Source: an uncultured Muribaculaceae bacterium | GTDB taxonomy: Bacteria > Bacillota_I > Bacilli_A > RF39 > UBA660 | Assembly (NCBI GenBank): GCA_964430695.1 | Contig: CAYSFO010000002.1 | Coordinates: 1 to 60,281 of the forward strand | Length of the DNA stretch: 60,281 bases | Reading direction: 5' to 3' | In this document: positions 59,116 to 60,281 of the stretch, piece by piece | Layout of the letters: each line of letters begins with the position of its first letter | Numbering within the stretch: position 1 is the stretch's first letter | The notes under the pieces: model-generated | Database searches by the model: none | Told to the model about the DNA's origin: nothing | What the model saw: the letters and a program-made list of their open reading frames with translations, nothing else | Program-made: the position numbers and the translations under genes

Positions 59116-60281
59116 TTATGATAACACCCAAGGTTTTGCTTTCGTTCCCGATCCAGAACTAGCAGAGACTCCAGATTTTAGAGTGATGATAGGCCGAATC
59201 GCAACGTAATGGTTGGAGCTGCTGAGGTTCATATACCCATAGTCATACAGGTCGACGCCGAGAATAGTCCCAGAAGTGTACACGATATGCCCGCGCCAGT
59301 AATAGCTCGTGGAACTGATATAGTAGAAAATACGCGAAGCAAGCCAATAAGTTGTTGCAGTCGTCGTGGCAGTGACTTTATTTGCTACTAATGTTCCTAC
59401 TGCTGCTTGCACTAGATTAGTATCCGTTTCATATCCTATATCTCCACATCCACTTGTTTCTTTACTATTATCTGTTGTTGAACTTGTTCCACACGTCTCT
59501 TGAGATAATGTCGCTGTTAGGAATTCTGTTTGTCCATTATATCCCATATGTCTAGTCGTTAGTGTATATTCATAGTTTGCATACAGACTTGCTAATGTAT
59601 TTAGTGCTCCTACTAAATTTAAGTATCCTTCTTTTCCATTAAATGTAACTGCTGTACTTGATACATATTCTGATACCATTTCTATTGTTCCATCATTGTT
59701 GATTCTTATGATTCTCCATAATTTCAATTCACTTGGTTTTAAAGTAACCGTACTCGTAGCTCCAGTGAGAGCTTTTGGCACAACATAAGAAGCTATGGTT
59801 GGTGTCATTTGAACATACTCTCCTACTTGAGCAGTAGCGGCTAATCCTGTCTTTGTAGTTGCCGTTGTATCTCCTACACATCCTTTGGTTCCTTTTACCC
59901 CAAATATGGTAACTCCACATCTTATAGCATTAGGACTTAAAGCAATATCTCCTTTGATTGTTTGTGCTCCACTTAGATATTGACCTGCACTTATTGTTTG
60001 ATTTGTTGTTCCTGGGGTATACGTTGCTGCTCCTTTGCTTGGTATTGTTCCTGTTACTTTTGCTCCATTTACATACGCTGTTTTATCTTTTAGTATTTGT
60101 GCTGCTGTTGCATCTGCATCACTTGTATAGGTTCCTGTGACTCCTCCTATACTTTGGCCTTGTGCTATTTTTGATGCTGGTATTTCTAATGTTCCTACCA
60201 CTAACTTTCCTTGTACATATGCCGTTTTTCCACTTAGGATTTCTTCTGATGTGGCATCTCCACTTATTGCACATATGTTTA
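59116..60281 (-). CDS. secreted surface protein, paralogue 2 (5' end beyond the right edge)
   Basis: The frame stays open to the window edge (...NICAISGDATSEEILSGKTAYVQGKLVVGTLEIP...). Near-identical to paralogue 1 except for the C-terminal variable segment. Confidence 0.8.
   Translation of the reverse strand, partial: NICAISGDATSEEILSGKTAYVQGKLVVGTLEIPASKIAQGQSIGGVTGTYTSDADATAAQILKDKTAYVNGAKVTGTIPSKGAATYTPGTTNQTISAGQYLSGAQTIKGDIALSPNAIRCGVTIFGVKGTKGCVGDTTATTKTGLAATAQVGEYVQMTPTIASYVVPKALTGATSTVTLKPSELKLWRIIRINNDGTIEMVSEYVSSTAVTFNGKEGYLNLVGALNTLASLYANYEYTLTTRHMGYNGQTEFLTATLSQETCGTSSTTDNSKETSGCGDIGYETDTNLVQAAVGTLVANKVTATTTATTYWLASRIFYYISSTSYYWRGHIVYTSGTILGVDLYDYGYMNLSSSNHYVAIRPIITLKSGVSASSGSGTKAKPWVLS

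Follow-up and report, generated by a model that had tools for sequence, protein, structure and literature searches.

An orphan variable region, very probably written by a diversity-generating retroelement, in a surface-protein family of an uncultured gut bacterium

We analyzed the whole of contig CAYSFO010000002.1 (60,281 nucleotides, nt; "the window" in what follows) from genome assembly GCA_964430695.1, an uncultured bacterium of the GTDB lineage Bacilli_A; RF39; UBA660. The window is one entire contig (C2) of a 1.49-Mb metagenome-assembled genome (MAG) that is 87% complete and split into 127 contigs, 47 of them shorter than 3 kb. Two tandem genes lie at the end of this contig, and the second, paralogue 2 (P2), is our subject. 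Its product is a predicted secreted surface protein with tail-fibre-like repeats in the N-terminal region and a 243-aa C-terminal domain, and within that domain lies a short segment (VR2; VR, variable region) that differs sharply from the rest of the gene. We infer that a diversity-generating retroelement (DGR) wrote this segment. Very probably, VR2 is a DGR-written variable region that stands as an orphan in this assembly, its cassette having been lost or left unassembled.

Results

Features at the Locus and Composition of VR2

The features needed for the argument are as follows.

59116 to 60279, continuing beyond, minus strand: P2 gene, taken from the list of open reading frames (ORFs); truncated on its 5′ side, where the contig stops.
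59332 to 59349, minus strand: conserved 5′ flank YWLASR (TAT TGG CTT GCT TCG CGT), directly upstream of VR2.
59200 to 59331, minus strand: variable region VR2, 44 codons, with a coding strand poor in adenine and rich in NNC codons; position and length are as in the template-served VRs of two relatives described below (loci L064 and L077).
59176 to 59199, minus strand: conserved 3′ flank IRPIITLK, where any sequence resembling an initiation of mutagenic homing (IMH) element would fall.
57608 to 58912, minus strand: paralogue 1 (P1) gene, 434 aa, complete, the tandem neighbor of P2, from the ORF list and alignment.
57692 to 57829, minus strand: variable region VR1 of P1, 46 codons (138 nt), of like composition and unrelated sequence.

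In an alignment of 54 sequences, Y and R of the 5′ flank are invariant and W, A, and S nearly so, while R, P, and L of the 3′ flank are invariant and I and K nearly so. From the end of VR2 to the P2 stop codon there are 27 codons, which places the VR near the 3′ end of its ORF.

The original prediction had described the segment as an independent variable stretch, much richer in GC than its surroundings, in which 21 of the 44 codons end in C. The reverse complement of 59200–59331 reads IFYYISSTSYYWRGHIVYTSGTILGVDLYDYGYMNLSSSNHYVA (44 codons), exactly the translation given there, and the codon count is also right. As had been claimed, the segment is GC-rich: its GC content of 0.477 exceeds that of the remainder of the gene (0.385) and that of the genome (0.292); only 39 of the 10,025 sliding 132-nt windows along the 60-kb window attain 0.477, and all of them fall in two clusters, which are the P1 and P2 segments. 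The third codon positions of VR2 comprise 21 C, 14 T, 9 G, and no A. Codons ending in C are thus far more frequent than among the remaining P2 codons (21/44 vs 25/343; Fisher p = 1e-10), and those ending in A are missing altogether (0/44 vs 190/343; Fisher p = 1e-14). Adenine makes up 0.22 of the coding strand in VR2 and 0.40 in the rest of P2; thymine is raised rather than depleted (0.30 vs 0.22), and third-position A resumes right past the 3′ limit of VR2. The anomaly is real and far beyond chance. An A-poor coding strand with few NNA and many NNC codons is the adenine signature of a DGR variable region, and a loss of adenine from the coding strand only, together with a synonymous shift, is the mark expected of DGR mutagenic retrohoming.

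A Family of at Least 16 Paralogues

The original prediction proposed cataloguing all copies of the gene. By TBLASTN, the assembly contains at least 16 of them, spread over 14 contigs; a signal peptide is present in most, and the N-terminus is of another kind in two. Common to all 16 is a C-terminal domain of ∼240 aa in which YW(L/I)xSR and RP(I/V)(V/I)xL bracket a segment of 43–58 codons that is different in each copy. Pairwise identities, computed with Biopython, are 45–61% among these segments, which is about the level of unrelated sequence, against a mean flank identity of ∼70% that reaches 96–98% in some pairs. Adenine accounts for 0.14–0.36 of the coding strand in the segments and for 0.34–0.42 outside them; it is at or below 0.30 in 15 of the 16 copies, the exception being the copy C52b (0.36), which is near the 0.38 of its flank. 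Third-position A ranges over 0.00–0.25 inside and 0.39–0.55 outside. The depletion is therefore present in most of the paralogues and weak in C45, C52b, and C31.

When the 16 copies are pooled, the bias is seen within synonymous codon sets. GGA makes up 9/77 of the Gly codons in the segments and 260/336 of those outside, ACA 7/40 and 311/517 of the Thr codons, and GTA 7/50 and 148/243 of the Val codons; among Arg codons, CGY accounts for 15/25 inside and 1/65 outside. Because the anomaly is synonymous, amino-acid selection cannot cause it, and the pattern points instead to loss of adenine from one strand through mutation or templating.

We note that the contamination estimate of the MAG is 5.9%, and a few of the paralogues could derive from co-assembled strains. 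The contexts downstream of the copies differ, which argues that most are separate loci. Among 5.8 billion protein clusters there was no conspecific protein, the best non-self match being 47–57% identical.

The Family as a DGR Target in Relatives

With a threshold of E ≤ 1e-20, 1,090 relatives were retrieved in a database search, many with pilin-like or signal-anchor N-termini, and none above ∼57% identity besides this genome's own copies. Scanning GTDB genomes with the domain alignment gave 76 loci in gut MAGs labeled Bacilli, Tenericutes, or Erysipelotrichaceae, and in 5 of these 76 a DGR-type reverse transcriptase (RT) is also present. The clearest is L077 (MAG Bacilli bacterium SUG1421, JAQXQC010000055), where the order is target, MSL (Pfam MutS_I, E = 3e-9), Avd-like gene, template repeat (TR), RT, and target, with a third target 7 kb downstream. 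The MSL-containing cassette type corresponds to Architecture D of Wu et al. 2018 (PMC5758913). The TR of L077 is 141 nt long, contains 35% A, and translates as YDHSSSTNYNWNGRNVNTSGTNSNNNLYNYNSSSFNTNNNSNSFRPV. It is 86.5%, 82.3%, and 80.1% identical to the three VRs, and the mismatches lie at TR adenines in 16/19, 17/25, and 19/28 cases, 52/72 in total. L064 behaves in the same way (19/25 mismatches at TR adenines); in L070 and L074 the TR–VR matches are weaker. The TRs of L077 and L064 cover positions 22 to 158–162 of the YW…RPIV stretch, which is the very segment flagged in the window, and in both the homology starts one codon past YWxASR and ends in the RP codons (CGCCCA).

In another relative, represented by two strains (L016 and L018), two tandem genes can be compared as orthologues: the VR shows 34 differences over ∼140 nt, and the remaining ∼820 nt show 35. 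The changes in the VR are confined to NNC-type codons, and the scaffold is invariant; a GTDB pattern search for the TR inferred from this pair gave 0 matches. Because the VRs of L077 and L064 are TR-templated and the strain differences of L016/L018 are focused on the VR, the YWLASR family is a genuine DGR target family in these relatives.

The median third-position A is 0.044 for VRs with a TR in the same locus (n = 9), 0.20 for the VRs of other relatives (n = 62), and 0.08 for the 16 VRs of this genome. In other species of the genus, the depletion is mostly weaker, with third-position A at 0.15–0.51 and one copy at 0.06.

As a separate observation, the L064 targets that flank the MSL-type cassette have 165-nt VRs that are 100% identical (10478–10642 and 13502–13666). 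This would be unexpected if they had diversified independently, and a recent duplication, conversion, or assembly collapse could account for it.

VR1 and VR2 Compared

P1 and P2 encode proteins with 82% amino-acid identity. Their DNA is 85–86% identical over 300 nt upstream of the VR, where 24% of third positions differ, and 78–79% identical over 84 nt downstream. VR1 and VR2 themselves share ∼49%, which is near random. The blocks that cannot be aligned (57691–57824 and 59199–59326) fit the VR limits defined by the TRs of relatives to within 1–2 codons, in support of the original view of the segment as a hypervariable block with a DGR-like signature. The further claim that VR1 and VR2 are not products of one template repeat holds as well. 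VR2, at 132 nt, is indeed 6 nt shorter than VR1, and 49% identity would demand a TR that is more than half A, because every difference would have to fall on a template adenine; the real TRs of the family contain 34–35% A.

VR2 aligns without gaps to the TRs of L064 and L077 over 137 nt, in the same register and at the same length. It mismatches 36% of their non-A positions, against 58% for VR1 and 41–63% for the other paralogues. The original prediction also allowed that only one copy is an active target; of the two, VR2 is the more canonical, though the L064 and L077 TRs did not template it.

Structure of the Variable Domain

An AlphaFold2 model of the P2 C-terminal domain (window 59119–59847) has a predicted local distance difference test score (pLDDT) of 96.3 and a predicted template modeling score (pTM) of 0.93. 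Antiparallel β-strands follow one another over model residues 167–216, and most of this run belongs to the VR. Foldseek against the PDB gave no significant match (best E = 0.37, TM score ≤0.2), one snake-venom C-type lectin-like chain ranking 17th at E = 1.4, and Foldseek against BFVD gave none. The family profile matched no PDB sequence, and Pfam assigned no domain, with no CLec, DUF1566, or FGE-sulfatase match.

Template and Machinery in the Assembly and the Genus

Several results weigh against assigning VR2 to a DGR, and we take them together here. A template was sought in the assembly by BLASTN (word size 7), by a full-length A-aware scan, and by 60-nt scans, and neither VR2 nor any other of the 16 VRs had more than self-matches. 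The template scan was scored without gaps and counted mismatches only at non-adenine template positions; the 60-nt version covered all 16 VRs on both strands and accepted up to 7 non-A mismatches. As a positive control, the full-length scan recovered the TR–VR pair of contig C58 (4/85 non-A mismatches). The idea of two templates, one of three explanations offered in the original prediction, thus found no counterpart in the assembly. MSL or Avd of the L077 type is likewise absent from the assembly, and among 31 genomes of the genus no TR beside a DGR-type RT resembles the YWLASR family. There is no recognizable hairpin or IMH downstream of VR1 or VR2, an IMH being definable only with a TR; no significant fold follows VR1, VR2, or the TR-served VRs of L077 (z 0.2 to 1.7). 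The 16 VRs cannot be aligned with each other (45–61% identity, 43–58 codons), and therefore one TR cannot serve all of them; many templates, or many template generations, would be needed. Finally, judging from the model searches, the domain is not detectably of the C-type lectin fold, and to our knowledge all solved DGR variable proteins belong to the C-type lectin class. The P2 domain may represent a scaffold for DGR variability that has yet to be described.

Three RT genes are present in the genome, on contigs C58, C3, and C53. The RTs of C58 and C3 carry DGR-type motifs and sit in avd-TR-RT cassettes whose TRs are unrelated to the YWLASR family. C58:2853–5300 (locus L002/L019) is a complete DGR in the order avd, TR, RT, target, and the VR that its TR matches lies at a distance of 1.5 kb, in a DUF6273-type target, the two being 88% identical over 120 nt. 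At C3:1–1700 (locus L003/L036), the cassette has an RT cut by the contig start and a TR (...FWHARVVNKNGNRNWNNVNKRNGGARP...) without a VR anywhere in the assembly, that is, an orphan template; a TR of this type is also the neighbor of an RT in three further genus members (L020, L021, and L023). We rejected both cassettes as the source of VR2, since the C58 TR fits its own DUF6273-type target and the C3 TR fits nothing. The third RT (C53:4210–6273; locus L001, 394–2457) is 687 aa long, has a Cys-rich, HNH-like C-terminal region, and lies directly downstream of an exonuclease III-like gene; from its sequence, we judge it to be group-II-intron-like and not of the DGR type.

Within the 31 genus genomes, 17 (this one included) match the C58 RT at E ≤ 1e-20, the weaker of which may not be of the DGR type. 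The VRs of family members sampled from nine of the genus genomes match none of the RT loci. A TR candidate inside the window, at 57154–57381 (an ORF with FWLAS), was also rejected on account of many non-A mismatches, codon by codon.

Discussion

How VR2 Would Have Been Written

The events that would account for VR2 are those of a canonical DGR. An RT would have copied the TR RNA, misincorporating opposite template adenines, and the cDNA would have replaced exactly the stretch of P2 from YWLASR (plus one codon) to RP. The patch so produced would be poor in coding-strand adenines and nearly free of NNA codons, with an abundance of NNC codons that stem from AAC codons of the template. In the secreted surface protein, it would form the β-strand face of the C-terminal domain, which presumably binds a ligand.

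We further infer that VR2 was written after the duplication of P1 and P2 or after their last homogenization. The lack of A-ending codons, together with the coincidence of the unalignable block with the TR-defined limits, suggests that VR2 was rewritten after the P1/P2 split, in which case the cassette was present recently or still is. By a rough reckoning, to which we give little weight, a VR frozen since that split should have regained ∼2–3 A-ending codons, and VR2 has none.

As to the fate of the cassette, we lean slightly toward loss, because no cognate component was found in the 87% of the genome that is assembled, none was found in the genus, and the 16 VRs are mutually dissimilar. If the cassette has been lost, VR2 would be frozen, one of an archive of 16; otherwise, the cassette would lie in the unassembled 13%, for instance just upstream of P2.

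Alternatives

The form of the DGR explanation in which VR2 is still an active target remains tentative, though we hold it to be a serious possibility. A cognate MSL-Avd-TR-RT cassette would then exist but be unassembled or unbinned, for example upstream of P2 beyond 60281. The contig stops inside the 5′ region of P2, the assembly is fragmentary, and one of the L077 targets begins directly next to the RT gene. The complete lack of A-ending codons in VR2 is as in TR-served VRs, and the VRs of P1 and P2 are unrelated although the third positions of their flanks have diverged so little. Set against this are the 1.49 Mb without a cognate-type RT, Avd, or MSL, the 31 genus genomes in which no cognate cassette was found, and the dissimilarity of the 16 VRs, of which one TR could serve a few at most.

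Recombination among paralogues was another of the mechanisms put forward in the original prediction, with tracts expected to end at the YWLASR and RPI boundaries. Old, divergent cassettes would be shuffled by way of the conserved flanks, or spared while the backbone was homogenized, with no reverse transcription in this lineage. One tract ends near such a boundary. P1 and the paralogue on contig C45 are 100% identical over 494 nt (window 57842–58335; C45:9700–10200), and the identity ends 13 nt before the YW codon; past it, synonymous differences set in already at the YWLASR codons, and the VRs bear no relation to each other. In addition, the downstream flanks of the family group differently from the upstream flanks, which is a mosaic pattern. 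No other long identical tract, however, ends near a VR boundary. The P1/C45 junction lies ∼34 nt upstream of the TR-defined VR start and looks like backbone conversion halted where homology ends. Among the 16 paralogues, no variable segment occurs twice (maximum pairwise identity 61%), no exact tract of ≥45 nt is shared within or after one, and shuffling leaves the strand-specific loss of adenine at synonymous sites unexplained. The proposal is thus weakly supported at best, and we consider it unlikely. The comparisons are best read as backbone gene conversion with no sign of variable cassettes copied between the paralogues of this genome. We note that the P1/C45 tract could itself be either a recent backbone conversion or an assembly artifact at a repeat, as contig C45 stops within the gene.

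An ordinary, fast-evolving binding loop, in which diversifying selection for a Tyr/Ser/Gly/Asp-rich sequence produces the bias with no mutator, is very improbable. The segments are rich in Y, S, G, D, and N, and their partly conserved scaffold (SST, W.G, V..SG, and LY.Y) reflects ordinary structural constraint. Yet A-ending codons are shunned only inside the segment for the same amino acids, and the bias begins and ends at the boundaries defined by the TRs of relatives. Some genus members have third-position A at or near flank level (0.35–0.51), and therefore the protein does not require the bias.

Least probable of all is a mutator that needs no TR, in which an RT (possibly a non-cognate DGR RT such as that of C58 or C3, acting in trans) copies the mRNA of the target or of another paralogue back and so erodes adenines in, and maintains, all 16 VRs: it would fit 16 A-depleted VRs with no TR found in a genome with two DGR-type RTs, but self-templating would preserve non-A positions, whereas the flanks of P1, P2, C45, and the C23 copy are 84–98% identical beside near-random VRs, no VR pair is related by A-to-N changes, canonical TR cassettes for the YWLASR family exist in relatives, and known DGR priming requires TR-spacer RNA.

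Comparison with Known Systems

The closest likeness to VR2 as a DGR product is with the MSL-containing DGRs of L077 and L064. The target family and the position of the VR (from one codon after YWxASR to RP) are the same, the VRs are 44–47 codons long, NNC-rich, and A-poor, and several targets lie in tandem or near the cassette. The differences are that the MSL, Avd, TR, and RT of that cassette are missing from the window and from the assembly as a whole, and that VR2, with mismatches at over a third of the non-A positions of the L077 and L064 TRs, has homologous scaffolds in them and not its template.

Remote and tandem multi-target DGRs are known, and that of Treponema has seven non-adjacent targets (PMC5758913). 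The paralogous targets described here are likewise multiple, dispersed, and far from any RT. Remote targets are defined by A-to-N changes only, relative to a TR in the same genome; in our case there is no TR match and no single VR scaffold.

Dispersed paralogues of CLec variable proteins are described for cyanobacteria (Vallota-Eastman et al. 2020, PMC7517822); in some, TR–VR homology is reduced to a remnant or missing, and no RT lies nearby. The authors of that study propose that selection of a variant is followed by removal of the diversification components. Here, too, the target domain is duplicated and dispersed, with copies lacking proximal diversification components. The domain is a different one, however, in that no CLec fold is detected, and the host is a small-genome gut Bacilli bacterium. 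Furthermore, all 16 copies are without a TR, and most keep a strong A-depletion. Dispersed orphan targets are therefore already known; what stands out here is that the orphan VRs number 16, that their signature is strong, and that the scaffold is unannotated.

With Mtd of Bordetella phage BPP-1 and with TvpA, P2 shares a C-terminal VR on a stable scaffold and AAC-type variable codons, and its N-terminal region is similar to a database protein named by UniRef as containing an Mtd N-terminal domain. Unlike Mtd and TvpA, the P2 domain has no significant Foldseek match in the PDB, C-type lectins included, and no CLec-type Pfam domain.

A small-genome gut bacterium thus spends at least 16 genes on one secreted surface-protein family whose binding faces are marked by DGR-like hypermutation, while the writing machinery was not found in its assembly. 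If the cassette is truly gone, this would be a clear case of a DGR-made repertoire that was then frozen as a paralogue archive; if it is merely unassembled, it would be a multi-target DGR in an uncultured Bacilli lineage. The family is unannotated, having no Pfam domain and no detectable relative of solved structure, and is a candidate new scaffold for DGR variability. Its probable role in the gut is that of an adhesin or a receptor-binding module.

Other Features of the Contig End

One further feature lies in the spacer between P2 and P1.

59061 to 59089, no strand assigned: GC-rich element in the P2–P1 intergenic spacer, with no sign of belonging to the system.

The original prediction had drawn attention to this element just downstream of P2. 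It exists, with coordinates one base lower than those first reported, and lies 27–55 nt past the P2 stop codon (59116–59118) and at least 111 nt past the end of the VR. Neither the window nor the genome has a second copy of it, and its RNA fold is no better than that of shuffled sequences (z = 0.21); no role was detected. On the absent fold signal and the single copy, we rejected it as a DGR hairpin or a terminator. Rfam gave zero matches over 56900–60281.

Downstream of P1, a gene for a 67-aa XRE-type helix-turn-helix protein (57420–57623) overlaps the P1 stop codon (ATGA). Such a gene is found again directly downstream of four other paralogues (on contigs C59, C63, C48, and C34) at 84–91% identity; P2 is without one. 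Beyond it lies a repeat of ∼310 nt (57123–57442), with copies on contigs C22 (93%), C3 (84%), and C18 (76%) and fragments on at least 8 further contigs. The repeat encodes a 28-aa hydrophobic peptide on the plus strand (∼57200–57286), with a strong ribosome-binding site and a convergent terminator stem, an anatomy that resembles a type I toxin–antitoxin module. The sequence TGGTTAGCGTC in the rejected FWLAS candidate is the terminator stem of this small peptide gene, and it imitates YWLAS codons by chance.

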